Shown here one piece after another: positions 1 through 12,619 of a DNA stretch of 64,000 nucleotides; the first letter of the stretch is position 1, and every line of letters begins with the position of its first letter. The stretch comes from Oscillospiraceae bacterium (GTDB lineage: Bacteria > Bacillota > Clostridia > Oscillospirales > Oscillospiraceae), in the NCBI GenBank assembly GCA_022799035.1, contig JAAWNQ010000009.1:289-64288 (forward strand), in the 5' to 3' direction. The position numbers were made by a program, and so were the translations under genes. The notes beneath the pieces are model-generated. The model was not told the DNA's origin. It saw only the letters and a program-made list of their open reading frames with translations, and ran no database searches.

Positions 1-3000
1 CTGCAAAGACAGGTCCAGGTAGAGCACGTCCTCCTTTTTGCCTGTGACCAGCTCCCCGATCTCCTCCTTATCCGCCGGCTCGTCCAGCTTTTCCACGGTG
101 AGCTTCACCGTGACGGTCTGCCACCCGTGGATCTCCCCGGCCAGGTCCTTCAGAACCTCCGTATCCGTGGTCACCTCCGGGGTATCCGTTCCCGGCTTCA
201 ACTCCACCTCACCCTTGGTCTGGTCCCCGGTGACGGTACGGTCATAGCCGCAGGTGGTGCAGATGACAACCTCATCGCTGCCATAGACATGCTCGGCATC
301 GTCCTTCTTTTCCCCGCAGTTTGTGCACGCATGCCAATGCCTGGTCTCGTCTGTACTCCACGTATTCGCCCAGGCGTGGGAGACAGTAAAATCCGCGGTG
401 GCGGTGACCGCCTCATAGTTGGTGGCGGCGGGGAAGGAGGCCCGGACGGTGTACTCCCCGGGAGTGACAGGCTTGGTGGCTGAGTAGGTCTCATCCGCCG
501 CGCCCTTGACCTTATAGACATAGCTCACCCCCTCCACCCCGTTGGTATCCGAGGTGGGCACCGGCACACTGGGCTCCCCGCCGCAGGTGAAATCGGCCAT
601 GGTGACGCTGCCCCTGCCGGGGGCTTTGGAGATGACAAAGGGGAACTGCTTCACCCCGATATAGTTTTCGTCCTCGTCCGCTATCCGGACCACCATGGCA
701 AAGCTTCCGGCGTTGGTGGGCGGGATCTCGGAGCGGTCGCCGCCGTATGCGGTGCCATCCACGCCCTTATAGGTGATCTCAATGTGGTCCTCCGGGATAT
801 TGGCGGTCACGTTCGTGCCGTCGTCGGTCTCGACGGCCAGTGTCCCGTCATAGGCGATGGGCTGGCCGTTATACGCCCGGTTGGTGAACAAAATGCCCCC
901 AAATTGCACAGAGGTCTTGTTGTTGGCATTGATCTTGAGGACGTTGGAAAAGGTCTCGTAGTTGTTCGACCGGATCTCCACGGTGATGGAGCCCACCTCC
1001 CCGGTGGTCTCCACCTCGTTGAACCCAATGGGCAGATGGAGGATGGCCATGCCCTCCTCCCGCTCAATGCGGGCGGGGGCATTTTCCCCGTCATAGTAGC
1101 CGGCGGGAAGGTCTACATTCAGAATGGTATAGAACGGCGCGCCCCAATCCTTGCGGTGTTCCGTAATACCCTCCGCGTTGAGCTGAGGCAGAAGGTTGGC
1201 CAGGGCGAAGGTGTACTCCTTGGCCAGTTTGTTGGTAATGTTGCGGGACACCTCCGTGGCCGTGGGGGGCGCGGCCTTGGAGATGATCACCGAGGTAGGC
1301 AGGGTCACATTGACCTGGGCAGTGTAATTGCCCGCCTTGGCCCCGGTGAGGGGCAGGCTGTTGAGGGTCACCGTCTTATAGGGTGTGTCGCTGACGTCGG
1401 GGCTGGAGACCGTCCCCTTGAGGCCCGTGGTATTCACCGCCACGTCATCCCCGGCTACCACCCCGTCCAGGGTCACGGCGGTGACCGCCACCGACGTGGT
1501 GCCGTCATAGGCCCGGTCCGTTGCCTTGGCGGCGGTGGCGGTGAGGGTCTTGGCGGTGACGGTAAAGCTCTGGTCCGTGCTCCCGGCGTAGCTGCCCTTG
1601 CCCGTGACGGTAACAGTGGCCGTGCCCTTGTTCACGTTATCCTTGTAGCTGACGGTGTAGTCGGTATCCGGGGTCAGGGTCGCGCCGCCCACCTTCACGG
1701 TGACCGTGGGCTTATTCTCCCCGCCATTGTAAACATAGCTGGACTTGTCCAGAGTGATGGCAAGGGTCTTGCTCTCGGTGTGGGACGGATCGGCCCCGCA
1801 CACCCGCTTCACAGTCTTTCCGTCCGCCTGGAGGGTCCACTTGCCCCAGGTGTGACCGGCGGGGATGGGCTTCTGGGCGGTGATCACATACCCGCACACC
1901 GAGCAGTGGCTCCCCTCCGTCAGGCCGTCTTCGGTACAGGTGGGGTTCTTCGCCGAGTCGGTGACGGCCTTGTGTTCGCCGTAGCTGTCCTTGTCACCGT
2001 TATTGATGATGGGACATTCGGCGGCGGTACACTCATGCCAGTGGTGGGTTTTGTTGGTGGTCCAAGCCCCGGCCCAGGTGTGGCTGTGGGCAGGGGCGAT
2101 GACCACCGACTTGGCGATCTCATCGCCGACCTTGAGGGTGAGGACTGTGCCGGTGAATATCTCAGCCTCCTTCAACTCGGCGTCAGCCAGGTTGGTAAAG
2201 TCGTTTGCCGTAGTGCTGCCCTGGATGGAGTACCCATCCGCCAAAATCTGGACGGTATCGTCCCCGAAAGCTGCCGCTGCGGTTGTGCCGCTGATCCTCA
2301 CAACGCCGCCGTCACTGACCTGAAGGTTTCCACCCACATCTATATTAAGGCCAATACATGCCCCCTGGTCGTCGGGGGTGGACGCCGTCACCGTGAACTC
2401 CGCTCCGCCGGTCACCTGAATGCCGCCGACGTAACCGCCGAAACACAGCATATCCAAGGCGGAGGCGGAGACCGTCAGCGTTCCCGTGCCCGTGACGGTC
2501 AGAGGAGAAAAATAGCTCATATCTCCGGTCATGATGCCCATGGCATATTTACCACTAATGGTGATATTGTTGTCGCTTCCATCGGCAAGCACGATGGTCA
2601 GCTCGTCGCTGCAAAGAAGCCCAACCGCTATTACATCTAGCGGATACCCTTCGTTAACGTTCACACCGTCCAGGGTCAGGGTGGGAGTGCCGTTCACCAC
2701 CGCGAAGGAGGCCTTGCCGGAGGCGACGCTCTCGGGGACGCCGCGAAAGATATCATCGTAATTGTCCTGGGTCACCTCGACGGGCCCCAACGCCAGCATA
2801 TGAATATTCGGGTCTGCCAGCCAGTCAACGGTGGCCTGATCTTCCGGCGACACGATGGTGACAATGTTAGACATCAAATGGCCGCTCTCATGGCTGACAG
2901 CACAGTAGTATTTTCCCAGCTCACGGGTGCTCAGGGAGGGGCTGGTCTCTCCCTCCATCGCCGTCCAGCAGCGGTCCACAGTAATAACAGCAGTAAATTC

Positions 3001-3510
3001 GCTGCTGCTCTTTATCCAGATACCTCCGTCATCATCAAATGTGGCGGTGTAGACGCCATCGCCCATTTTCTGGAAACTGTCGCCGGAACCATTTTCGACG
3101 GTCAGAGTATCGTTGACCATCTCAGGGGGGATTCGCACGGTGACCTGATCGCCGGGCGAAGTGATATACTTAATTGAGACTCTATATATAGCCGTTACAC
3201 CCATCTCCGCTGTCCAGTGTCCATCGGCGTAAGAGCCTTCATTGTTATAGACAGGAGCCGCACCCAGTTCATCCTCTGCTGGGTCTGATCCTACTAAGTT
3301 GTAGGTCTCGGGGACGGAAATCTTTTTCCACCATTGGAAGCCCTCGGTCAGTTCATCCGGACCGGCTTCCGCTTTCACGGTGTAACCGTTTTCCGTCGTG
3401 GGCTGTTGGGTGATCTCCGCACGGTAAGAAGCCCACACTGTGGTGGGCAGAATGCCCGACAGCAGACAGAGGGTAAACAGCGCGGAAAGCAAGCGGTTTC
3501 TGTGTTTCAT
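1..3510 (-). CDS. Large secreted/cell-surface repeat protein, partial (C-terminus beyond left edge): signal peptide, Ig-like, beta-rich, Cys/His repeats, YDG/MBG-like domains
   Basis: Hand-translated: ATG at 3510 with GGAGG RBS; no in-frame stop down to base 1 (1170 codons). N-term MKHRNRLLSALFTLCLLSGILPTTVWA signal peptide; SYVYNGGENKPTVTV...DYTVSYKDNVNKGTATVTVTGKGSY repeat; RAYDGTT (YDG-like); HWHEC/HWHAC motifs. Confidence 0.85.
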   Translation of the reverse strand, partial: MKHRNRLLSALFTLCLLSGILPTTVWASYRAEITQQPTTENGYTVKAEAGPDELTEGFQWWKKISVPETYNLVGSDPAEDELGAAPVYNNEGSYADGHWTAEMGVTAIYRVSIKYITSPGDQVTVRIPPEMVNDTLTVENGSGDSFQKMGDGVYTATFDDDGGIWIKSSSEFTAVITVDRCWTAMEGETSPSLSTRELGKYYCAVSHESGHLMSNIVTIVSPEDQATVDWLADPNIHMLALGPVEVTQDNYDDIFRGVPESVASGKASFAVVNGTPTLTLDGVNVNEGYPLDVIAVGLLCSDELTIVLADGSDNNITISGKYAMGIMTGDMSYFSPLTVTGTGTLTVSASALDMLCFGGYVGGIQVTGGAEFTVTASTPDDQGACIGLNIDVGGNLQVSDGGVVRISGTTAAAAFGDDTVQILADGYSIQGSTTANDFTNLADAELKEAEIFTGTVLTLKVGDEIAKSVVIAPAHSHTWAGAWTTNKTHHWHECTAAECPIINNGDKDSYGEHKAVTDSAKNPTCTEDGLTEGSHCSVCGYVITAQKPIPAGHTWGKWTLQADGKTVKRVCGADPSHTESKTLAITLDKSSYVYNGGENKPTVTVKVGGATLTPDTDYTVSYKDNVNKGTATVTVTGKGSYAGSTDQSFTVTAKTLTATAAKATDRAYDGTTSVAVTAVTLDGVVAGDDVAVNTTGLKGTVSSPDVSDTPYKTVTLNSLPLTGAKAGNYTAQVNVTLPTSVIISKAAPPTATEVSRNITNKLAKEYTFALANLLPQLNAEGITEHRKDWGAPFYTILNVDLPAGYYDGENAPARIEREEGMAILHLPIGFNEVETTGEVGSITVEIRSNNYETFSNVLKINANNKTSVQFGGILFTNRAYNGQPIAYDGTLAVETDDGTNVTANIPEDHIEITYKGVDGTAYGGDRSEIPPTNAGSFAMVVRIADEDENYIGVKQFPFVISKAPGRGSVTMADFTCGGEPSVPVPTSDTNGVEGVSYVYKVKGAADETYSATKPVTPGEYTVRASFPAATNYEAVTATADFTVSHAWANTWSTDETRHWHACTNCGEKKDDAEHVYGSDEVVICTTCGYDRTVTGDQTKGEVELKPGTDTPEVTTDTEVLKDLAGEIHGWQTVTVKLTVEKLDEPADKEEIGELVTGKKEDVLYLDLSLQ

Positions 3511-3744
3511 GGGTATGCCTCCTATCAAATCAATGATTCGGGTATCTTTCATCTCTGTACCTCTCCCTATATAACCAGACAGATTTTCCCCCATCCCCGT
3601 TGCGCCCGGATAAAAAATTTTTATTATTTTCTTTTACACCATAAATAGCAGCACACAGAAGGCCCCCCTCCCCCCCTCAAGACCCCCTCCCCAAATCTCG
3701 GCATCCCCACAAAAAGTCCCTTCCCCTGCCCACCATATGATCAT

Positions 3745-3785
3745 AAAAAACGAGTCTGAAAGGTTCTCGAAACCTTTCAGACTCG
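3745..3785 (-). terminator. Intrinsic terminator for the gntR-HAD transcript
   Basis: Perfect stem cgagtctgaaaggtt/aacctttcagactcg with A6 (U-tract on minus) at 3745-3750. Confidence 0.8.
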
Positions 3786-3829
3786 CTTTGATCTATAACC
3801 TGTTTATACCTGCCTACCCCTGACCCCCG

Positions 3830-4546
3830 TCAAGCCGAAGTCAGAGACAACCCCAAATGCTCTGCCAAGCCCCAGAGATCGTCAAAAACCACATCCGCCT
3901 GGGCCTGGACCTCCGGGACGGGAGGGACCTGGTCCGGGATCAGTACCGAATAGGCGCCCGACGCCACAGCCGCCAAAATACCGTTTTGAGAATCCTCCAC
4001 TACGGCGCATTCCGTAATGGGCAGTCCCAGCCGCTCCCCAGCGGCCAGGAAGATATCGGGGGCCGGTTTGGACTTTAGTCCCAGGTCCCCCGAGAGAACA
4101 GCCTGGAACCTCAAGGGGATATCCGCCGCCCGGAACAGGGTCTCCGCGTCCCGCCGGGGGCTGGAGGTGGCCAATGCGGTGGGGATCCCCGCCTCCCAGA
4201 GAGCGAAAAGCAGTTCCCCGGCCCCCGGCTTGGGCGGACCCGACGGCCCCGTCCACAGCGTTTTCGCCAGATTTGTCCGGTACTCGTAGACCCTTTGGGC
4301 CAGCTCCTCATCCCCGTGAAAAAAATCCACATAGGCCCGGGGCATGGTCCTTTGACTGCTGCCCGAGGTATGGAGAAACATGGCCTCACTGCCTGTAAAA
4401 CCGAACTCCTTCTCCGCCATCTTCCAGGTGCGAAGCCAAAACCCCTCGCTGTCAAAAAGGGTCCCGTCCATATCGAAGATAAACCCGTATATCTTTCTCC
4501 CCGAGGGGGTACAGAGAAACGGGGCGGCATTCTGTTCCAGGGACAC
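3830..4546 (-). CDS. HAD-IA family phosphatase (beta-PGM-like)
   Basis: FDMDGTLFDSE motif I, LATSS, KPAPD, VVEDSQNG; probable GTG start at 4546 after GGAGG (track start 4609 is longer). Confidence 0.85.
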   Translation of the reverse strand: MSLEQNAAPFLCTPSGRKIYGFIFDMDGTLFDSEGFWLRTWKMAEKEFGFTGSEAMFLHTSGSSQRTMPRAYVDFFHGDEELAQRVYEYRTNLAKTLWTGPSGPPKPGAGELLFALWEAGIPTALATSSPRRDAETLFRAADIPLRFQAVLSGDLGLKSKPAPDIFLAAGERLGLPITECAVVEDSQNGILAAVASGAYSVLIPDQVPPVPEVQAQADVVFDDLWGLAEHLGLSLTSA

Positions 4547-4577
4547 GGCCCATCCCCTCCTTTCCTTCCGGCCTCTT

Positions 4578-5294
4578 TCAGCCCTCCATGGTGTAGACGT
4601 ACATCTCACCGTTATAGTAGGTCTCGGTATATTCCAGCAGGGCCTGGCGGCCCTCCTGCATGGTATACGTCACATGGGAACTGCACAAAAGCGCCCCCTC
4701 CTCGATCCCCAAAAGCTGTTTCTGCTCCGGGGTGGGAAGGGTAGCCCGCAGCTCCCGGTCACTGGTCCGGCTGTGGTCGATCCCCTGGGCGTCCAGATAG
4801 GCGTAAAAGGAGTGGTTCAGACACTCCACATTGATGGCGGGAAGGACCTTGGCGGCGATATAGGTATAGTTGATGGCAATAGGGGTGTCATTTCCCGTGC
4901 GCAGGCGGACAAAGGAATGGACCAGATCCATCTCCTGAAGTCCCAGCTTTCCCATCGCCACAGGGACCTCCCCCGCCTGGACCACCCGGTAGGAGACCAG
5001 CTTGGCCCCAGCCACCATCCCCACCGACTTCATATCCTCGCTGAAGCTGCGGCCCGAGGCGGTCTCCTTCCTCACCGAGGGCGGCATGACAAAGCTTCCC
5101 TTCCCCGGGGTCCGCTTGATATATCCCAGGTCGCTCAAATGATTCAGGGCCTTGCTGATGGTCATGCGGGAGAAGCCGAACCGCTCACACAGCTGCTCCT
5201 CCGTCATGATCTGATCTCCCGGCTTAAGCTGGCCGGAAAGGATATTCTCCTTCAAAAGTTCTTCCACCTGCTGGTATTTGGGTCTGCTCGGCAT
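4578..5294 (-). CDS. GntR family (HutC/UTRA) transcriptional regulator
   Basis: PKYQQV...TEEQLCERFGFSRMTISKAL...GKGSFV wHTH plus C-terminal UTRA-like domain. Confidence 0.92.
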   Translation of the reverse strand: MPSRPKYQQVEELLKENILSGQLKPGDQIMTEEQLCERFGFSRMTISKALNHLSDLGYIKRTPGKGSFVMPPSVRKETASGRSFSEDMKSVGMVAGAKLVSYRVVQAGEVPVAMGKLGLQEMDLVHSFVRLRTGNDTPIAINYTYIAAKVLPAINVECLNHSFYAYLDAQGIDHSRTSDRELRATLPTPEQKQLLGIEEGALLCSSHVTYTMQEGRQALLEYTETYYNGEMYVYTMEG

Positions 5295-5320
5295 GGCGGA
5301 TCCCCCCTTTGTATGTACAT

Positions 5321-5349
5321 ATTATAGTCTAAGCCCCCGGATTTGTCTA
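5321..5349 (-). promoter_or_regulatory. SigA-type promoter of gntR
   Basis: TAGACA (5349-5344) - 17 nt - TATAAT (5326-5321) on minus strand. Confidence 0.65.
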
Positions 5350-5446
5350 CCGAAAAAACAGTTTTTTCCTAAAAAAGCCCAAAAATATTCCCTTTTTTTC
5401 TTCTCAAACCCGGGAGAATCCCCTTCCCAAAAATATTTTTGCAGCA

Positions 5447-5511
5447 GTCTATACAAAATTTCCGAAAGACTATTGCATTCCTCTTGGTTATTCTTTATTA
5501 TGTATATACAT
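5447..5511 (+). promoter_or_regulatory. PTS operon promoter with GTNTANAC-type GntR/HutC operators
   Basis: TTGCAT (5473-5478) - 17 nt - TATTAT (5496-5501); perfect palindrome ATGTATATACAT 5500-5511; GTCTATAC 5447-5454. Confidence 0.6.
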
Positions 5512-5614
5512 TTAAGCCATCTCAATTACGAGCTTCTTTCAAATCCTTGGGAATGGCATGATTTACCAGATAATATGTATAGGGAAATCGATCATTCTTC
5601 CGGGAGGGACCAAG

Positions 5615-6034
5615 ATGAACCAGTTTGTCATTGCCACCCATTCCACCCTGGCCCAGGGCTTTACCCAGGCCATCCACTTCTTCTATCCCGAGGTGGAAAA
5701 CCTCCGCTTCCTCAACGCCTATGTGGAAAGCCAGGAGCTGGAGAAGGACCTGCGCTCCATTTTGGAGGATATCCGGGGAGAAAACATCGTTGTCCTCACC
5801 GACATTCCCGGCGGCAGCGTGAACCAGGTAGCCATGAAGCTCCAGCGGGAGTATGGCTTCCAACTGGCCGCGGGGATCAACCTGCCCATGCTGCTGGATC
5901 TGGTGTCCGAATCCCAGGACGTGGGTCCTGAAGCCCTTCGTTCCGCCCTGGACACCGGACGGGAGGGCATGGTCTATATGAACGACCTGACCCCGCCGGC
6001 GGAGCTCCCCCCGGAGGACGACGAGGAACTGTGA
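5615..6034 (+). CDS. PTS mannose/fructose/sorbose family EIIA
   Basis: FVIATHSTLAQG (phospho-His) and VLTDIPGGSVNQ motifs; ATG 5615 after GGGAGGG. Confidence 0.9.
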   Translation: MNQFVIATHSTLAQGFTQAIHFFYPEVENLRFLNAYVESQELEKDLRSILEDIRGENIVVLTDIPGGSVNQVAMKLQREYGFQLAAGINLPMLLDLVSESQDVGPEALRSALDTGREGMVYMNDLTPPAELPPEDDEEL

Positions 6035-6100
6035 CCGTTGGAGGGCAGAGCTCCCTCCTACCATATAATACCAAACCATATTGAAAGGGAGGAAACATGA

Positions 6101-6601
6101 ATGATCCTGATGACGCGAGCTGATGACAGACTGATCCACGGCATGGTGGCGGTCTCCTGGACTTCCCACCTGAAGCCCCAGACCATCCTGGTAGCCAACG
6201 ACGTCACCGCCAAGGATGAGTTCAAGTCCATGACCATGAAGATGGCCCAGCCCGCCGGGGTCAAGCTGATCATCAAGACCCTGGACGATTCCATCAAGGC
6301 CCTGAACAACCCTATCAACGACAACAAGCACATTTTCCTGGTGGTCGAGAGCGTGGCCGACGCCCTTTACATCTACGAGCGTATCAACAACAAATTTCAG
6401 CGTTTGAACGTAGGCACGGCAGGGGTCAATAAAAAGGAGGGAGAAGAATACATACCGACTCTGCCGCAGGTATTTATGACAGCCAAAGAATTTGAGTGCG
6501 CGGAAAAAATGGCTGCCGGCGGGGTGGAGATCTTCGCGCAGATCACCCCCACAAGAGAACGGATGGAGTTCAAGGACATTGAGAGAATCTTCAAAAAATA
6601 G
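6101..6601 (+). CDS. PTS mannose family EIIB
   Basis: RADDRLIHGMV motif, LNVG. Confidence 0.92.
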   Translation: MILMTRADDRLIHGMVAVSWTSHLKPQTILVANDVTAKDEFKSMTMKMAQPAGVKLIIKTLDDSIKALNNPINDNKHIFLVVESVADALYIYERINNKFQRLNVGTAGVNKKEGEEYIPTLPQVFMTAKEFECAEKMAAGGVEIFAQITPTRERMEFKDIERIFKK

Positions 6602-6613
6602 GAGGAATGAGTT

Positions 6614-7381
6614 ATGTTTCAAGGTTTCCTGGTCGCGTTAGTGGCGGCTCTGGTCTACATGGAGTCCCGGATCGGCGGACAACACATGCTGGACCGCCCC
6701 ATCATCATCGGCCCCCTGGTGGGTATCATCATGGGCAACCCCGCCATGGGCCTGCTCATCGGCGGTGAGCTGGAGCTGGTCTGGATGGGCCTGGTGGGCA
6801 TCGGCACCTCTACTCCCCCCGACGTGGTAGTGGGCTCCGCCCTGGCGACCGCTCTGGCCATCAAGACTGGCGCGGACTACACCACCACCCTGGCCCTGGC
6901 CATCCCCATCTCCCTGCTGGCTCAGGTCGGCTCCATCGGCGTGTGCATCCTGAACACCGCCTTCGCCCACCGGGCCGACGCCTGTGCCGAGAAGGGCGAT
7001 TACCGCGGAGTGGAGATCTCCAACTGGATGGGCTCCGCCCTCTATTTTGTCTTCAAGTTCAGCATGGTGTTCATCGGCTTCCTCATCGGCGCCGACCTGA
7101 TCACCGCCATCGTTGAGAACATTCCCGCCGTCATCCAGCAGGGCCTTGGTCAGTCCGGCAACCTGCTGCCCGCCCTGGGCGTTGCCATGCTCATCCAGCT
7201 CACCTGGGACCGGAAGTTCGGCGCGTTCCTGTTCCTCGGCTTTGCCCTGGCCGCCTTCCTGAATGTGAGCACTCTGGGTGCCGCCATCTTCGGCGTGGTC
7301 ATCGCCGTCCTTTACTTCACCATGTCCGGCAACAATAACGCCCAGGCTGTGGCCTATTCCAACGAAAGTGAGGAGCTGTAA
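6614..7381 (+). CDS. PTS mannose family EIIC
   Basis: DRPIIIGPLVG...GLLIGGELEL...PPD, hydrophobic. Confidence 0.92.
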   Translation: MFQGFLVALVAALVYMESRIGGQHMLDRPIIIGPLVGIIMGNPAMGLLIGGELELVWMGLVGIGTSTPPDVVVGSALATALAIKTGADYTTTLALAIPISLLAQVGSIGVCILNTAFAHRADACAEKGDYRGVEISNWMGSALYFVFKFSMVFIGFLIGADLITAIVENIPAVIQQGLGQSGNLLPALGVAMLIQLTWDRKFGAFLFLGFALAAFLNVSTLGAAIFGVVIAVLYFTMSGNNNAQAVAYSNESEEL

Positions 7382-7383
7382 TT

Positions 7384-8202
7384 ATGGCAGTGGAAAAGAA
7401 ACTCAGCGAGAAGACGCTGAAGAAGGTCTATAACCGTCACTATCAGCTGCTGGGCTGCTTTAACTACGAGCGGCAGATGTCCACCGGCTACGCCTGGACC
7501 ATGATGCCCGCCCTGCGGGAGCTTTACGCCGACGACCCCGCGGAGATGAAGAAGGGCGTCAAGCGCCACCTGGAGTTCTTCAACTGCGCCACCACCCCCA
7601 GCCCCTTCATCGTGGGTATCACCTGCGCCATGGAGGAGCAGAACGCCAGCGCCGAACCCGGCGAGTACGACGCCTCGGCCATCACCTCGGTAAAGACCGC
7701 CCTCATGGGCCCTCTGGCCGGTATCGGCGACAGCTTCTTCTGGGGCACCTTCCGGGTCATCGGCGCCGGTATCGGCGCTCCCCTGGCTGTGGCCGGCAAC
7801 TTCCTTGGCCCCCTGCTCTATTTCCTTCTGAACTTTATCCCCTCTGAGATCGTGCGCCGCCTGGGCTTCAAGATCGGTTACGAGGGCGGCAGCTCCTTCC
7901 TCACCCGCATCTCCGCCGACGGCACCCTCCAGAAGCTCACCGAGGCCGCCCGTATCATGGGCCTCATCGTCATCGGCGCCATGATCCCGTCTATGGTAAA
8001 GGTAAACTTAGCCGCCGTCCTCAACATCAACGGAGCCGAGATCGTCCTGCAAAGCATTGTGGATCAGGTCTGCCCCTATCTGCTGCCCCTGTTGCTGACC
8101 TTCGGCTGTTACCGGCTTCTGAACAAGAAGATCTCCGGCACCGCCATCATGATCGGTCTGCTGGTCCTGGGCGTGGCGGCCACCGCGCTGCATATCCTGT
8201 AA
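7384..8202 (+). CDS. PTS mannose family EIID
   Basis: FNYERQM, RHLEFFN, KTALMGPLAGIGDSFFW. Confidence 0.93.
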   Translation: MAVEKKLSEKTLKKVYNRHYQLLGCFNYERQMSTGYAWTMMPALRELYADDPAEMKKGVKRHLEFFNCATTPSPFIVGITCAMEEQNASAEPGEYDASAITSVKTALMGPLAGIGDSFFWGTFRVIGAGIGAPLAVAGNFLGPLLYFLLNFIPSEIVRRLGFKIGYEGGSSFLTRISADGTLQKLTEAARIMGLIVIGAMIPSMVKVNLAAVLNINGAEIVLQSIVDQVCPYLLPLLLTFGCYRLLNKKISGTAIMIGLLVLGVAATALHIL

Positions 8203-8247
8203 GTTAAAACTATAATCGGTTCGGAAGAAAGGCGTAGGTGTACTATC

Positions 8248-8973
8248 GTGGATAAAAAAGCCATTATCGACAGCCTGAAGGACGGCCTCATCGTCTCCTG
8301 TCAGGCGGTGCCCAGCGAGCCTCATTACATGCCCGGGGTGGTTCCCATGTTCGCCCGGTGCGCCCAGTGGGCCGGCGCCGCCGGCCTGCGGATCGACACC
8401 CCCGACAACGTCCGGGAGGTAAAGGCCCAGGTAGACCTTCCGGTCATCGGCCTGTGGAAGATCGACCGGGGGATCAAGGACGTCTACATCACCCCCCACT
8501 TTGACGCCGCCCGCCAGCTTTGGGAGGCCGGGGCTGAGATCATCGCCATCCAGGCCACCAACCACCGCCGGGACGACGGCAAGCTGTCCTATGAGACCAT
8601 CACCGAGGTCAAGGAGCGCATCCCCCAGGCCCTGGTCTTCGCCGATATCGCCACCGCCGAGGACGCCAAGGAGGCCGCCGCCCGGGGGGCGGATTTCGTG
8701 GCCCCCACCATGTACGGCTACGTGAAGGCGGGGACCTTCACCGGCCCCGAGATCAAGGATGCTCCCGATTACCGCCTGCTGCGGGATATCGTGGACGCGG
8801 TGAAGGGCACTGGCTCCATGGTCATCATGGAGGGTAAGGTGGCCACCCCTGAGATCGCCATTCAATGCCTCTACATGGGAGCCCATGCCGTGGTGGTGGG
8901 CAACGCCATCACCCGGCCCCACATCACCGCCAAGCGGTTCGCCCGGGCTCTGGACCGTTACCACAATGAATAA
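8248..8973 (+). CDS. nanE: NanE-like N-acylmannosamine-6-phosphate 2-epimerase (divergent)
   Basis: GLIVSCQA, PVIGLWK (catalytic Lys position), YITP, EGKVATPE, VVVGNAITRP; GTG start. Confidence 0.8.
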   Translation: MDKKAIIDSLKDGLIVSCQAVPSEPHYMPGVVPMFARCAQWAGAAGLRIDTPDNVREVKAQVDLPVIGLWKIDRGIKDVYITPHFDAARQLWEAGAEIIAIQATNHRRDDGKLSYETITEVKERIPQALVFADIATAEDAKEAAARGADFVAPTMYGYVKAGTFTGPEIKDAPDYRLLRDIVDAVKGTGSMVIMEGKVATPEIAIQCLYMGAHAVVVGNAITRPHITAKRFARALDRYHNE

Positions 8974-9637
8974 GCTCTGGCTCCTCCTACTCCTGGGCGG
9001 CCTTATAGTCGCCAGCCTGTTCTACAAGCGCTGGGCAGTGAACTACGGTTTGAAGCGGCTTTACGCCCTGCGGAACGCCGGGAACAGTGAGGAGTTTCTC
9101 CAGGCGGTGGACTCCAGTTATATCCGCCTTCATTTCAGCCCCTTTGCCCGACAGCTTATGAAGCTGAATTATTGGATCGACAGGGGGGAGAACGGGAAGG
9201 TGGAGGAGCTGCTCCCCACCTTTGAGGAACTGAAATGCTCCCGAAAGGACCGGATCGCTTTTTACTCCAGAGCCCTGGGCTACACCCTGGAAAAGGGCCG
9301 TCCCCAGCAGGCCCGGGAGTATATGGATAAGCTGGAGAGCCTCCTAAAGGACAAAACCGACCCCCAGTCCCAGGCCATAAAGCTGGAGCTGGAACAGTTG
9401 GACGGCGTCTATCTGAAAAAAGATACCTCCCTCATCCCCGTTCTGGAACAGCTTTTGGAGCAGACCAAGGGGGAAAATGCCTCTGTGATATGCTACCGTC
9501 TGGCCCGGCTCTATCACGCCCAGGGGGATCCGGTCCAGACCGATCGGTACCTGGACCGGGCCCTGAAGCTAACAGGACAGGAATCCTCTCAGAACGCGCT
9601 GCGGGCATCCATGAAGGATCATTCTCTATTAGATTAA
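8966..9637 (+). CDS. Membrane-anchored helical (TPR-like) hypothetical protein
   Basis: ATG overlaps nanE end; N-terminal TM MNKLWLLLLLGGLIVASLF; YRLARLYHAQGDPVQTDRYLDRAL resembles a TPR. Confidence 0.7.
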   Translation: MNKLWLLLLLGGLIVASLFYKRWAVNYGLKRLYALRNAGNSEEFLQAVDSSYIRLHFSPFARQLMKLNYWIDRGENGKVEELLPTFEELKCSRKDRIAFYSRALGYTLEKGRPQQAREYMDKLESLLKDKTDPQSQAIKLELEQLDGVYLKKDTSLIPVLEQLLEQTKGENASVICYRLARLYHAQGDPVQTDRYLDRALKLTGQESSQNALRASMKDHSLLD

Positions 9638-9652
9638 AAGGAGACCGATGAC

Positions 9653-10738
9653 ATGCAGGACAAAAATTGGGATATGTACGATTATATCTTGGAATCCAAG
9701 GCCGCGGTCAGAAACATTGTGGACCATCAGGACCCTATTTTCAAGGAGGCCCTGGCCTACTTAAAGGATAAGCCCATCGAGCAGATCTACATCCTGGGTT
9801 CCGGTACCAGCTATCACGCCTCTGTGGCCGCCAAAAATGTGGTGGAGGATGCCCTGGGGATCAAGGTCATCAACATGTACCCCATGGAGTTTGTGGACAA
9901 CGAGCGGGTATTCAATACCAAGACCCTGGTGGTGGGCATCTCCCACGCCGGCAGAAGCTCCAGTACCATCAAGGCCTTGGATAAGGCCCGGAGCCTGGGC
10001 CTTATGACCATCGCCATGACCGCCGAGCGGGACCGTCCCATCGTGGACCACGGGGAAACCTCGGTCTACATTGAGATCGGGGATGAATTTGCCGGTCCCA
10101 AGACCAAGGGATACATCGGCTCCATCGCCACCATCGCTCTGCTGGGACTCAAGCTTGCCGTACAACAGGGCAAGCTGACCGAAGGGGAAAAGGCGGAATT
10201 GGAGAAACGGATGCTGGACACCGCCGACCAAATCCCCGATATTGCCGAAAAGGCCTGGCAGTGGTACAAAGACAACGCCGAAGAGCTGAAAAAATGCCGC
10301 CGCCTGCTGGTGCTGGGCTACGAGAGCTGTATGAGCGCCATGCTGGAGGGCACCCTGAAAATTCTGGAGGCCGTCCGTTACAGCGTCACCGGTTACGAGC
10401 TGGAGGAGTTCATGCACGGGGTATACCACTCCATCGACAAGGACGCCTATATGCTCTATCTGGGCTGCCCCGGCAAGCATTATGACCGGATGATCCATAT
10501 GCGTGACTATTTTGCCCAGCAAAGAGGGGCCAAGGGCTATGTGGTCACCTCCGATCCCGGTCAGACCGGGAAGGAAAATTTCGTCTATCCCTTCAAAAAC
10601 GATCCCTATTTTGCCTCCATGGAATATGTGGTCCCCCTCCAGGTCATCGCCAGAAAGCTGTCCCTGGATCTGGGCATTGATTGCAACCTGTCCAGCGACC
10701 CCGATTTCCATAAGAACATGGGCAGCTACTCCTACTGA
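9653..10738 (+). CDS. SIS-domain sugar-phosphate isomerase/deglycase (GlmS-C/FrlB/AgaS-like)
   Basis: ILGSGTSYHA, GISHAGRS, KTKGY, EGTLKILE, LEEFMHG. Confidence 0.88.
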   Translation: MQDKNWDMYDYILESKAAVRNIVDHQDPIFKEALAYLKDKPIEQIYILGSGTSYHASVAAKNVVEDALGIKVINMYPMEFVDNERVFNTKTLVVGISHAGRSSSTIKALDKARSLGLMTIAMTAERDRPIVDHGETSVYIEIGDEFAGPKTKGYIGSIATIALLGLKLAVQQGKLTEGEKAELEKRMLDTADQIPDIAEKAWQWYKDNAEELKKCRRLLVLGYESCMSAMLEGTLKILEAVRYSVTGYELEEFMHGVYHSIDKDAYMLYLGCPGKHYDRMIHMRDYFAQQRGAKGYVVTSDPGQTGKENFVYPFKNDPYFASMEYVVPLQVIARKLSLDLGIDCNLSSDPDFHKNMGSYSY

Positions 10739-10854
10739 TCCCATTTTAGGATGGGAGATCCACCCCTCCTCTCTCTTTGCCGCCCCGACCCCACCAAAAG
10801 GTCGGGGCGGCCCTTTTCAGGGACAGAGAAAAACTCACCCAAGGAGGAACTCCG

Positions 10855-11511
10855 GTGAACAAACCTTTCCGCGCGGTCATTTTTGACATGGACGGGGTCC
10901 TGGTGGACTCTGAATGGCAATATCACCTCCGAAGACTTGATTTTCTCCGGGAGCATGGTGTAGAATTGCCACAGGAAACCCTTCCCCAGGTCATCGGCCG
11001 CCCCTACCAAAGCTATGTGGACATGGTCCTGAGCCTGGATGGAGTCTCCTGGACCCAGGAGGAATATACCCGCCTCTACGATGCCTATACCCAGCGAATC
11101 GGGCGGCTCCACTACGACCAATGCCTGTTCTCAGACGCCCCCGGCGTCCTCTCCCTTCTGAAGCGGAAGGGACTTCGTCTGGGTCTGGCCTCCTCCTCCC
11201 CCCGGAGGGCGGTCTCCCTCATGCTCTCCGACTGCGGCTTCGGGACTATATTTCACTGTGTCTTGGCCCAGGAGGACGTGGAGCAGGTCAAACCCTCCCC
11301 TGAGATCTACCGAAAAGCCGCCGCCCGCCTGGACCTCTCCCCTGAGGAGTGCGTGGCGGTGGAGGATTCGGTCCACGGCATCCGCTCCGCCCTGGACGCG
11401 GGGATGACCGTGGTGGCAAAGACCTCCCCCCATTATGAGCTGGACCAGTCCGCCGCCCACTACCACATCAGACAGCTTCAGGACCTGCCCCCTCTTCTGG
11501 AGCGGCTGTAA
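10855..11511 (+). CDS. HAD-IA family phosphatase
   Basis: IFDMDGVLVDSE, LASSS, KPSPEIY, VEDSVHG; GTG start 10855 after AAGGAGG. Confidence 0.88.
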   Translation: MNKPFRAVIFDMDGVLVDSEWQYHLRRLDFLREHGVELPQETLPQVIGRPYQSYVDMVLSLDGVSWTQEEYTRLYDAYTQRIGRLHYDQCLFSDAPGVLSLLKRKGLRLGLASSSPRRAVSLMLSDCGFGTIFHCVLAQEDVEQVKPSPEIYRKAAARLDLSPEECVAVEDSVHGIRSALDAGMTVVAKTSPHYELDQSAAHYHIRQLQDLPPLLERL

Positions 11512-11545
11512 GCAGGCTAAAACCAATATAGAAGGAGTGTCCCCT

Positions 11546-12619
11546 ATGATAACCCTACTGGAAACCATTCAGCAGATCCCCGGCGTCCTCTCCTCGGTGA
11601 TCGCCAACCGGAAGACCACCTTCCAGGCCCTTCTGGAGGCAGTGGACAGCCGGGAGACCCCCATCACCCAGATCATCCTTCTGGGCTCGGGTACTTCCAA
11701 CACCTCGGGCTGTACCGCCCGGTATTTTGCCGAGCAGGCCGGCGGCCTTCCTGTCCGGGCGGTGATTCCCAATGACTTCTGCTACGCCCCCTTCCATGAT
11801 CCCAACGCCCTCTACCTGATCATCTCCCAGACCGGCACCTCCATCAAGACCAGGGAGTGTCTGGACCTGATCAAGGACTTCGGCGGACTGGCCGCCGCCA
11901 TGAGCGAATCCCCCAACACCCCCATCGCCCAGGCCGCGGAGGTCTATGTGGATATGGGCTGCGGCTATGAGGAGCATAAGACCCGTACCATCGGATACAG
12001 CGCCACCGTCCTCACCATCATGCTCTTGGGCTTGGAGCTGGGGCTCCGGCGGGGCCATCTGACCCAGGCCCAGTATGACTCTTACCTCTCCCAGGCTCAA
12101 AAGCTCCCCGCCGCCATTGAGAGGGTCATCGACGACGCCATGACCTGGATGGACCGGAGCAAGTGGGAGATGCTCCACTCCGACCTTTTGTTCTTCACCG
12201 GGGTCAACTCCCTCTGGGGCGTGGCCCAGGAGGCCGCCTGCAAGGTCTGGGAGCTTCCCAAGCTGGCCTCCATGGGGGTAGACCTGGACGAGAGCATGCA
12301 CGGGCCCAACTTTGGCTTTAACGGCCGTCACTGCGTCCTTGTCCTGGACGATGGCCGGGTGGACAGCCAAAAGGCCGCCGCCATGGTCCGGTACATGAAA
12401 ACCGAATTCAAAAACGGCTTTATGATCGGCCCCGATCCGGTAGGCCCCGGCGACCTGAAGCTGATCCCTCAGAGCGGTCCCTTCTCCTGCCTGGAATTCG
12501 CCGCCGCCATCCAGATCCTGGCCTACCGCCTGGCCCAGGACTGCGGTCGTGACCTCCAATCCCCCCACGACAACAGCGTAATGAACAGCTACTTCATCTC
12601 CCACAGCGACCAAAAATAA
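11546..12619 (+). CDS. Second SIS-domain sugar-phosphate isomerase/deglycase
   Basis: LLGSGTSNTS, ISQTGTS, KTRTIGY, EAACKVWE, DESMHGP; ATG 11546 after GAAGGAG. Confidence 0.85.
   Translation: MITLLETIQQIPGVLSSVIANRKTTFQALLEAVDSRETPITQIILLGSGTSNTSGCTARYFAEQAGGLPVRAVIPNDFCYAPFHDPNALYLIISQTGTSIKTRECLDLIKDFGGLAAAMSESPNTPIAQAAEVYVDMGCGYEEHKTRTIGYSATVLTIMLLGLELGLRRGHLTQAQYDSYLSQAQKLPAAIERVIDDAMTWMDRSKWEMLHSDLLFFTGVNSLWGVAQEAACKVWELPKLASMGVDLDESMHGPNFGFNGRHCVLVLDDGRVDSQKAAAMVRYMKTEFKNGFMIGPDPVGPGDLKLIPQSGPFSCLEFAAAIQILAYRLAQDCGRDLQSPHDNSVMNSYFISHSDQK

Follow-up and report, generated by a model that had tools for sequence, protein, structure and literature searches.

Which sugar is broken down by an operon that sets a phosphotransferase system (PTS) of the mannose family beside a NanE-like sugar-6-phosphate 2-epimerase and two SIS enzymes, and that carries none of the genes nanA, nanK, nagA, and nagB? 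Such a locus lies near one end of a 64,000-nucleotide stretch of DNA from an Oscillospiraceae bacterium (GenBank assembly GCA_022799035.1, contig JAAWNQ010000009.1, positions 289 to 64,288), the whole of which is called the window here. An earlier note on this DNA had suggested a pathway for N-substituted hexosamines formed by glycation, in which the epimerase funnels mannosyl-amino acid 6-phosphates into two deglycases resembling those of the Salmonella gfrABCDEF operon. Several gut bacteria, including Salmonella, live on glycated amino acids from cooked or autoclaved food by means of mannose-family PTS operons that include SIS enzymes. To our knowledge, enzymes are known for just two kinds of glycation product, the Amadori product fructoselysine and the Heyns product of gluco type.

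Here we report that the locus is a real operon, as yet unstudied, that is widely conserved in gut and soil Gram-positive bacteria. In our judgment there is about an even chance that it belongs to a conserved, self-contained catabolic module whose substrate is a 2-amino-2-deoxy-hexose derivative with a free amine or an N-alkyl group. In what follows, SIS1 is the SIS protein encoded at the end of the main gene series, SIS2 is the one encoded farther downstream behind a HAD phosphatase gene, and SISx denotes the usual second SIS protein of other lineages, which is encoded upstream in the operon.

Results

Recurrence of the operon

A pattern scan with an alignment of SIS1, taking one genome per species, returned 79 loci onto which the window proteins were mapped, and a metagenome scan with motifs specific to the epimerase clade added about 30 contigs. 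The module was present in the same gene order in about 25 species or metagenome-assembled genomes (MAGs) and in the approximately 30 metagenome contigs, spanning Bacillota and Actinomycetota. The constant order is a divergent GntR gene, then SIS, EIIA, EIIB, EIIC, EIID, the NanE-like gene, the 223-amino acid open reading frame (ORF) and a second GntR gene where present, and SIS1, often with a HAD gene in addition. Carriers include Clostridium spp., Lachnospiraceae and Clostridiaceae MAGs, Erysipelotrichaceae (Holdemania, Merdibacter, and Anaerorhabdus), Collinsella stercoris, six Neobacillus or Bacillus species, and Enterococcus gallinarum, and their habitats are the human, mouse, and ruminant gut and, for Neobacillus, soil. 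Recurrence of the arrangement on this scale is far beyond chance.

Homologues of NagA, NagB, NanA, and NanK were found in none of the approximately 55 cluster operons, as surveyed in the 64-kb window and the 10-kb flanks of related loci. BLASTP with the Escherichia coli proteins and NagC against all ORFs of at least 90 amino acids in the window likewise gave no homologue, which bears out the absence of nanA, nanK, nagA, and nagB reported earlier. When the flanking ORFs were clustered, the only recurrent additional gene, found after SIS1 in two lineages, encoded an EamA-type carboxylate, amino acid, or amine transporter (exporter). Because the clustering showed no other recurrent enzyme, the module looks complete.

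The epimerase

Six active-site residues have been described for NanE, in Staphylococcus aureus numbering Gln11, Arg40, Lys63, Asp124, Glu180, and Arg208, together with the signature motifs X-P-X-I-G-I-X-K-[basic] and V-G-[S/G]-A-X-T-R (PMC8482478). The window protein and 22 orthologues from cluster loci all keep the six residues at the aligned positions. Both signature motifs failed: the first reads LPVIGLWK-I, with Ile for the basic residue, and the second VVG-N-AITR, with Asn for Ser/Gly. These two changes are invariant throughout the cluster epimerase clade, which is further marked by EPHYM, G(I/L)WKIDR, VVGNAITRPH, a new GYTK-AG loop, and IAxQAT in place of IA-x-D-AT. Judged by TIM-barrel topology, three changed motifs would lie on the catalytic face, where strands 3, 4, and 8 have their C-terminal ends.

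The window protein is 37-38% identical to the NanE proteins of solved structure, about as distant from them as they are from each other. The clade is sharply bounded, with identity of at least 56% within it and at most 51% to proteins outside it. Its nearest outside relatives are encoded beside a ROK kinase and a glycyl-radical enzyme, or within an operon of PTS, sulfatase, TauE, and FGE genes. On these alignments the NanE-like protein belongs to a subfamily of its own, specific to the cluster. Since the clade is separate and its relatives stand in non-sialic contexts, resemblance to NanE does not by itself indicate N-acetylmannosamine 6-phosphate (ManNAc-6-P) as the substrate. Databases uniformly label the clade as ManNAc-6-P epimerase; sialic acid genes were never linked to it in the operons examined.

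Several neighborhoods of these outside relatives were recorded. On two contigs (L098, 9001-12940, and L099, 8011-12962), a NanE-like gene whose product ranks next in closeness to the cluster clade, at 47-51% identity, lies directly between a ROK kinase gene and genes for a glycyl-radical enzyme and its activase; the pairing of a sugar-6-phosphate 2-epimerase with a glycyl-radical enzyme looks uncharacterized. A NanE-like gene at 43-47% identity is also present on about 45 human-gut metagenome contigs (L133-L179), over half of which have a ROK-like (NagC-type) gene as well. In Oceanobacillus jeddahense (L097, 5329-12276), a PTS-linked cytoplasmic sulfatase operon includes a NanE-like epimerase, its genes encoding a glucose-family EIICB, a sulfatase, EIIA, the epimerase, a TauE sulfite-exporter family protein, an FGE-sulfatase maturase, and a GntR/UTRA regulator.

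The SIS enzymes

SIS1 and SIS2, described earlier as divergent, are 25% identical. SIS1, SISx, and SIS2 all have the GlmS isomerase domain as their best family match, followed by weak matches to NagB-II, which for SIS1 (75 bits) and SIS2 (40 bits) fall below the cut-off of 430 bits for model NF046059. None of the three matched the AgaS model TIGR02815 at 1e-5, for which the E. coli AgaS control scored 634.9 bits. The FrlB model gave a partial match to SIS1 (45 bits, 5.6e-12 over 120 amino acids) and none to SIS2, compared to 812 bits for the E. coli FrlB control. Some SISx proteins weakly match a phosphoglucose/phosphomannose isomerase (PGI/PMI) model. The closest solved relatives of SIS1 are Protein Data Bank (PDB) entries 3g68 from Clostridioides difficile (2.8e-51) and 3knz from Salmonella (8.7e-46), at 31% identity.

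As references for gfr-type operons we used plasmid-collection records from Enterococcus faecium and Klebsiella pneumoniae with the architecture sigma-54 regulator, EIIABCD, SIS, SIS. The GfrE and GfrF references were assigned by this architecture and by the approximately 85% identity of the neighboring SIS protein to PDB 2a3n, not by name. We take 2a3n to be Salmonella STM4540, that is, GfrF; it is approximately 85% identical to the second SIS protein of the Klebsiella operon. In a maximum-likelihood tree, FrlB and the GfrF-position proteins formed a clade of their own (support 100/96). A group with 98/99 support contained the GfrE-position proteins (with Listeria 2aml), the 3knz/3g68 clade, SIS1, SISx, and SIS2, and it left out E. 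coli AgaS, the GlmS isomerase, and FrlB. The earlier note had regarded clustering with AgaS or GlmS as speaking against a glycation product, and in this tree the proteins of the window fall elsewhere. Family models and the tree together led us to reject both an FrlB-like deglycase and an AgaS-like identity for all SIS types. Within the 98/99 group, SIS1, SISx, and SIS2 form clades separate from the architecture-assigned GfrE-position proteins, to which they are 25-31% identical.

The Glu488/His504 dyad of GlmS (E. coli numbering) aligned in SIS1, SISx, and SIS2. SIS1 has the C-terminal Lys that corresponds to GlmS Lys603, as do the GfrE-position proteins, 3knz, and 3g68; SISx, SIS2, FrlB, and the GfrF-position proteins do not. 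With the Lys in SIS1 and not in the second SIS protein, the pair thus repeats the split between GfrE and GfrF. SIS1 is the invariant SIS protein of the cluster, predicted from these alignments to be an aldosamine-6-phosphate deaminating isomerase or deglycase.

SISx occurred in NanE loci in 22 of 23 cases. SIS2 belongs to a separate clade (support 100/100) found mainly in Oscillospiraceae and related Clostridia, other members of which adjoin MatE and ROK genes. The HAD-SIS2 gene pair is conserved in three relatives (L180, L181, and L182). A relative that differs in its downstream flank (L180/L181) preserves the order SIS1-HAD-SIS2, and in L182, which is more distantly related, the pair adjoins another mannose-family PTS; from this we read SIS2 as a paralogous replacement of SISx, apparently specific to this lineage, and not as SISx itself. 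The L182 region (616-4669) comprises a mannose-family EIID, HAD-SIS2, and then genes for an NAD-dependent epimerase/dehydratase, which has a different epimerase fold, and HPr.

SIS1-clade proteins are also encoded in loci that have no epimerase gene. Examples are L029 (2839-11086) and L016 of Lachnospiraceae, where a SIS1 of 70% identity ends a non-PTS operon that encodes two ROK kinases, an ABC importer, a divergent NagB-like protein, and a ribokinase-like PfkB kinase. The PfkB kinase was considered as an FrlD-like enzyme and rejected, being ribokinase-like with a weak partial match to the FrlD model; for this reason, an frl-type pathway finds no support there.

Gene map, accessory proteins, and transcription

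The gene map (Table 1) was built from the ORF listing and from Pfam and NCBIfam scans, which confirm the EIIABCD, NanE-like, two SIS, and HAD genes named in the earlier note. That inventory was correct in what it listed but left out the regulator, the 223-amino acid ORF, and the terminator hairpin. The region has a G+C content of approximately 60%, and the genes from EIIA to SIS1 are closely spaced.

Table 1. Features of the locus, with positions in the window and the match or analysis behind each assignment
Feature	Position	Strand	Evidence
HAD-IA sugar-phosphate phosphatase (beta-PGM/HxpB-like)	3830-4609	-	Pfam Hydrolase 1.2e-24, HAD_2 1.3e-22
GntR+UTRA regulator	4578-5294	-	Pfam GntR 3.5e-18, UTRA 1.9e-23
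Divergent control region, 320 bp between regulator and EIIA	5295-5614		Promoter scan
PTS EIIA, mannose family	5615-6034	+	PF03610 1.6e-12
PTS EIIB, mannose/sorbose family (PTSIIB_sorb)	6101-6601	+	PF03830 2.7e-37
PTS EIIC, mannose family	6614-7381	+	PF03609 9.9e-67
PTS EIID, mannose family	7384-8202	+	PF03613 7.1e-94
NanE-like sugar-6-phosphate 2-epimerase	8248-8973	+	PF04131 6e-45; NF002231 225.4 bits
223-amino acid membrane-anchored TPR-like ORF	8966-9637	+	AlphaFold2 model; no family above cut-off
SIS1, 361-amino acid double-SIS protein	9653-10738	+	NF001484 (GlmS) 2.5e-39
12-bp GC-rich hairpin followed by CCUUUUC, intrinsic terminator or attenuator	10779-10811	+	RNA fold
Second HAD-IA phosphatase (HxpB-like)	10855-11511	+	HAD_2 3.5e-29
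SIS2, 357-amino acid double-SIS protein	11546-12619	+	GlmS model 3.4e-26

The PTS subunits are 26-42% identical to those of the gfr-architecture operons and by sequence appear somewhat nearer to these than to the E. coli Man or Aga subunits. EIIB is 37-38% identical to gfr-type EIIB and 26-29% to E. coli AgaV, AgaB, and ManX. EIIA is 26-29% identical to its gfr-architecture counterparts, and its sole E. coli match, the IIA part of ManX, has 27% identity at a far weaker E-value.

The 223-amino acid ORF matched no Pfam or NCBIfam family above cut-off. An AlphaFold2 model built with 14 orthologues (mean predicted local distance difference test score 93.3, predicted template modeling score 0.80) shows a single membrane helix at the N-terminus and a TPR-like solenoid made up of helices only, for which Foldseek returned only generic TPR proteins, none at E of 0.001 or below. 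Orthologues, 23-47% identical, are present in most related clusters and missing from L006, L007, and L014. We considered the protein as a missing enzyme and rejected this for a membrane-anchored TPR solenoid with no specific structural neighbor; on the model, it is best regarded as a non-catalytic accessory. The two HAD proteins are 29% identical to each other. The one encoded upstream has NCBIfam matches to the beta-phosphoglucomutase (beta-PGM) family and to HxpB that fall below cut-off, and the second reaches 110 bits with the HxpB model, also below cut-off. The upstream HAD gene, which falls shortly beyond the range 4578-12619 of the earlier note, abuts the regulator gene in the same direction, and its translation probably begins downstream of the GTG at 4609. 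The second HAD gene starts with GTG, 8 nucleotides behind an AGGAGG ribosome-binding site. HAD genes recur at the cluster edge in many relatives, and their role is likely the relief of sugar-phosphate build-up.

The regulator, of GntR/HutC type with a helix-turn-helix and a UTRA effector domain, is presumed to repress the divergent PTS operon. Regulators 50-61% identical to it occupy the same divergent position in most related loci. The control region contains promoter-like hexamers and two sites of the HutC-family operator form GTnTAnAC, GTCTATAC at 5447-5454 and GTATATAC at 5502-5509. In the related contig L180 the two motifs are retained along with the sequence around them, and the sites are candidate operators. 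An operator in common with the control region was sought 5' of HAD-SIS2, and none was seen. The hairpin between SIS1 and the second HAD gene has a folding energy of -42 kcal/mol over 95 nucleotides (z = -3.9) and is also retained in L180.

The source organism is common in mouse-gut metagenomes. RNA contigs from three mouse-gut metatranscriptomes match the locus at 100% and span 6611-10764; they begin in EIIC, cross the EIIC-EIID, EIID-NanE, and NanE-ORF223 junctions, and in two runs do not go past 10764. HAD and SIS2 are covered by RNA contigs too, more thinly. In the same runs coverage was zero on the regulator side and in the operon downstream of SIS2, a pattern that speaks against carried-over DNA. 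The uneven depth of the contigs does not permit quantification, and the data show expression and not the inducer. The core of the operon is thus expressed as one unit in vivo in the mouse gut, and HAD-SIS2 is a downstream unit transcribed by read-through or from its own start.

On the opposite strand 3' of SIS2 lies a separate operon for a phosphoribosyltransferase, a guanine-deaminase-like protein, an FGGY kinase, and BtpA. Upstream of the locus, a very large ORF on the reverse strand (window 1-3594, more than 1198 amino acids) with a YDG domain runs off the window edge and may encode a surface or adhesin-type protein. Three flanks of related loci were recorded as well. On metagenome contig L109 (326-5363), an operon for a HIT protein, a LarA-like racemase, a NagB-like protein, a NagA-like protein, and a GlcNAc-2-epimerase-family protein adjoins the divergent regulator of the cluster. 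In an Erysipelotrichaceae MAG (L003, 9169-15068), the cluster is directly followed by a second GntR-controlled unit of EIIC, EIID, EIIB, a gamma-glutamyltranspeptidase, and two chromate-transporter-family proteins. Anaerorhabdus furcosa has a similar chromate-transporter pair after the SIS gene of its NagA-type operon (L065, 12442-13577), as judged by a look at the sequence and not by a Pfam scan.

Discussion

The approximately 55 operons always contain a SIS gene of their own and never a deacetylase, which suggests that the substituent on the sugar nitrogen can be removed by the SIS enzymes themselves, as would be the case for a free amine or an N-alkyl group. Our leaning toward such a substituent comes also from the consideration that an operon for N-acetylmannosamine (ManNAc) would not need SIS enzymes if nagA and nagB were present elsewhere in the genome. 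A nitrogen-bearing sugar is then probably imported, flipped at carbon 2, and relieved of its nitrogen group to yield fructose 6-phosphate. In this pathway, the GntR/HutC regulator would hold the divergent operon off until an intermediate binds its UTRA domain, and EIIABCD, as known for the family, would import the sugar and phosphorylate it at C6. The NanE-like TIM barrel, in which the catalytic residues are present, could invert C2 of the putative open-chain 6-phosphate substrate from manno to gluco through deprotonation and reprotonation by Lys and Glu, as in NanE. By the chemistry of their family, the GlmS-isomerase-type SIS enzymes would convert the aldosamine to the ketose, freeing the C2 nitrogen substituent and giving fructose 6-phosphate. 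This step would be carried out by SIS1 everywhere, together with SISx in most lineages or with SIS2 in the lineage of the window. In outline, we hold three of these steps to be well supported: import by the PTS with phosphorylation at C6, epimerization of an aldose 6-phosphate at C2, and conversion of an aldosamine to a ketose by GlmS-type enzymes to give fructose 6-phosphate. The HAD phosphatases may relieve sugar-phosphate build-up, with the TPR membrane protein as a putative non-catalytic accessory.

Among individual substrates of this kind, Heyns-type products (glucosyl- and mannosyl-amino acids) are the leading candidate, though a tentative one. Heyns products do occur as pairs of gluco and manno C2 epimers, that is, as the two kinds of 2-amino sugar invoked in the earlier proposal (PMC8172402), and mouse chow contains fructoselysine (PMC12675984). 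The NanE-like protein may, although we consider this rather doubtful, be a new N-(2-deoxy-mannos-2-yl)-amino acid-6-phosphate 2-epimerase that feeds the manno epimer to GfrE-related deglycases, with SIS1 and either SISx or SIS2 then releasing the amino acid and fructose 6-phosphate. Literature searches turned up nothing that connects Heyns, Amadori, or gfr systems with either NanE or mannosamine. Free mannosamine or glucosamine is unlikely as the substrate, and another N-alkyl or unknown substituent is very unlikely.

The known system closest in design is gfrABCDEF of Salmonella Typhimurium and E. faecium, which is described as a fructoselysine/glucoselysine PTS with the deglycases GfrE and GfrF (Wiame 2005 and Miller 2015, as cited in PMC12675984). 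In both, a mannose-family EIIABCD precedes two double-SIS enzymes that are GlmS-related and stand alone, one with the C-terminal Lys and one without, and neither has a kinase or a deacetylase; the gfr PTS subunits are the closest characterized-type match among those tested. The operon of the window adds the NanE-like epimerase, the HAD phosphatases, and the TPR membrane protein. The analogy drawn in the earlier note therefore stands for the PTS and for two SIS enzymes in a supported group with GfrE-position proteins, but not beyond: no SIS type appears to be a GfrE orthologue, none is of FrlB/GfrF type, and SIS2 is not the usual second SIS protein. With no apparent GfrE orthologue and no FrlB/GfrF-like enzyme, the two-deglycase analogy is loose, and use of fructoselysine is not predicted.

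Other systems offer partial parallels. FrlC, the fructoselysine 3-epimerase of the E. coli frl operon, is similar in logic only, in that an epimerase encoded among genes for a glycation product lets a second epimer be used as well. FrlC has a TIM barrel like that of xylose isomerase, works on C3 of an unphosphorylated ketosamine, and is unrelated to NanE in sequence and chemistry. AgaS, a galactosamine-6-phosphate deaminase/isomerase, and NagB-II, a SIS-type glucosamine-6-phosphate (GlcN-6-P) deaminase, share the fold and the general deaminating-isomerase chemistry of the SIS proteins described here, although AgaS falls outside the SIS1/SISx/SIS2 group in trees. A C. difficile PTS cluster annotated as gfr-like ends in a SIS gene (PMC8241443). 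The structural-genomics proteins 3g68 and 3knz, whose function is untested, form a clade separate from SIS1, and no NanE-like gene has been reported with them. We assume that 3g68 is probably the product of that terminal C. difficile SIS gene.

The main competitor to a substituent removable by SIS enzymes is the use of ManNAc or another N-acyl-mannosamine. The PTS would produce ManNAc-6-P, the NanE-like enzyme would convert it to N-acetylglucosamine 6-phosphate, an unlinked NagA would deacetylate this product, and SIS1, with SISx or SIS2, would act as a NagB-II-type GlcN-6-P deaminase. In E. coli, ManNAc is taken up by the ManXYZ PTS and passed through NanE, NagA, and NagB; Plumbridge and Vimr reportedly described uptake by ManXYZ and the requirement for NanE in 1999. 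The window operon shares with this route a mannose-family PTS and a NanE-family 2-epimerase for a 6-phosphate with conserved catalytic residues, but here both are in one operon with SIS enzymes, nagA, nagB, nanA, and nanK are unlinked, and the epimerase, at 37-38% identity to canonical NanE proteins, lacks both signature motifs. Several observations favor this explanation over ours. The epimerase scores above the NF002231 cut-off of 189 bits and keeps two aromatic residues that in solved NanE structures touch the N-acetyl group, corresponding to S. aureus NanE Tyr149 and Clostridium perfringens NanE Tyr75. All SIS types have weak NagB-II model matches, sister clades of SIS1 belong to mannose-PTS operons with a NagA-like amidohydrolase, and a SIS1-related protein occurs with ROK kinases and a NagB-like protein, as expected for ordinary hexosamine-6-phosphate deaminases. 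Contig L109, the sole case of linked nag-type genes, has nagB, nagA, and the GlcNAc-2-epimerase-family gene next door, and nagA may be present elsewhere in the carrier genomes. It also counts against our own reading that no module protein has a named orthologue of established substrate, that no FrlB/GfrF-type deglycase is present, and that a GntR/UTRA repressor takes the place of the sigma-54 LevR-like activator (GfrR) of the reference operons. On the other side, a PTS and NanE would suffice for ManNAc if nagA and nagB were elsewhere, making the strictly conserved SIS genes redundant; yet one or two deaminase-type genes are always kept in the approximately 55 operons and a deacetylase never is, and the NanE-like clade, which breaks both signature motifs, is never beside nanA or nanK. 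Because the N-acetyl contacts are kept, the sister SIS clades are NagA-linked, and nag genes adjoin the cluster in L109, we retain ManNAc as a possible substrate, well short of an even chance, and regard Heyns products and ManNAc with NagA elsewhere as about equally likely. The glycation-product pathway of the earlier note thus gains from the SIS tree, from the absence of nag and nan genes in cis, and from the chemistry of Heyns products, and loses from the loose likeness to gfr, the NagA- and NagB-linked sister clades, and the kept N-acetyl contacts.

It is quite unlikely that the substrate is not an amino sugar at all, with the NanE-like protein epimerizing another aldose 6-phosphate at C2 and the SIS proteins acting as plain phosphosugar isomerases. 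The nearest relatives of the epimerase do stand with glycyl-radical enzymes and ROK kinases or with PTS-sulfatase-TauE genes and not with amino sugar genes, some SISx proteins weakly match the PGI/PMI model, and SISx and SIS2 lack the Lys603 equivalent. However, every SIS protein has its best family matches in GlmS and NagB-II and not in PGI/PMI, SIS1 retains the full GlmS triad, and ordinary mannose would need neither enzyme. A narrower question is whether HAD-SIS2 (10855-12619) is an unrelated neighboring unit, so that the pathway here uses SIS1 alone. The strong terminator before the HAD gene, the end of RNA contigs at 10764, the SIS2-clade genes that elsewhere stand alone beside MatE and ROK genes, and the Merdibacter cluster (L020), which has no second SIS gene, all point in that direction. 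Against it, the SIS1-HAD-SIS2 order persists with a different downstream flank, the pair adjoins another mannose-family PTS in L182, nearly all other lineages have a second SIS gene in the operon, and HAD and SIS2 appear in RNA contigs too, so that we consider an unrelated unit possible but improbable.

In conclusion, the operon represents a large gene family that is mis- or under-annotated. If its substrate is a Heyns product, the module would provide the step so far missing for manno epimers of fructation products and give the NanE fold a new activity, and both C2 epimers of dietary fructation products would be usable by many gut Firmicutes, Collinsella, and soil bacilli. If it is ManNAc, the module would be the main ManNAc uptake route of many Firmicutes, in which SIS deaminases replace NagB.

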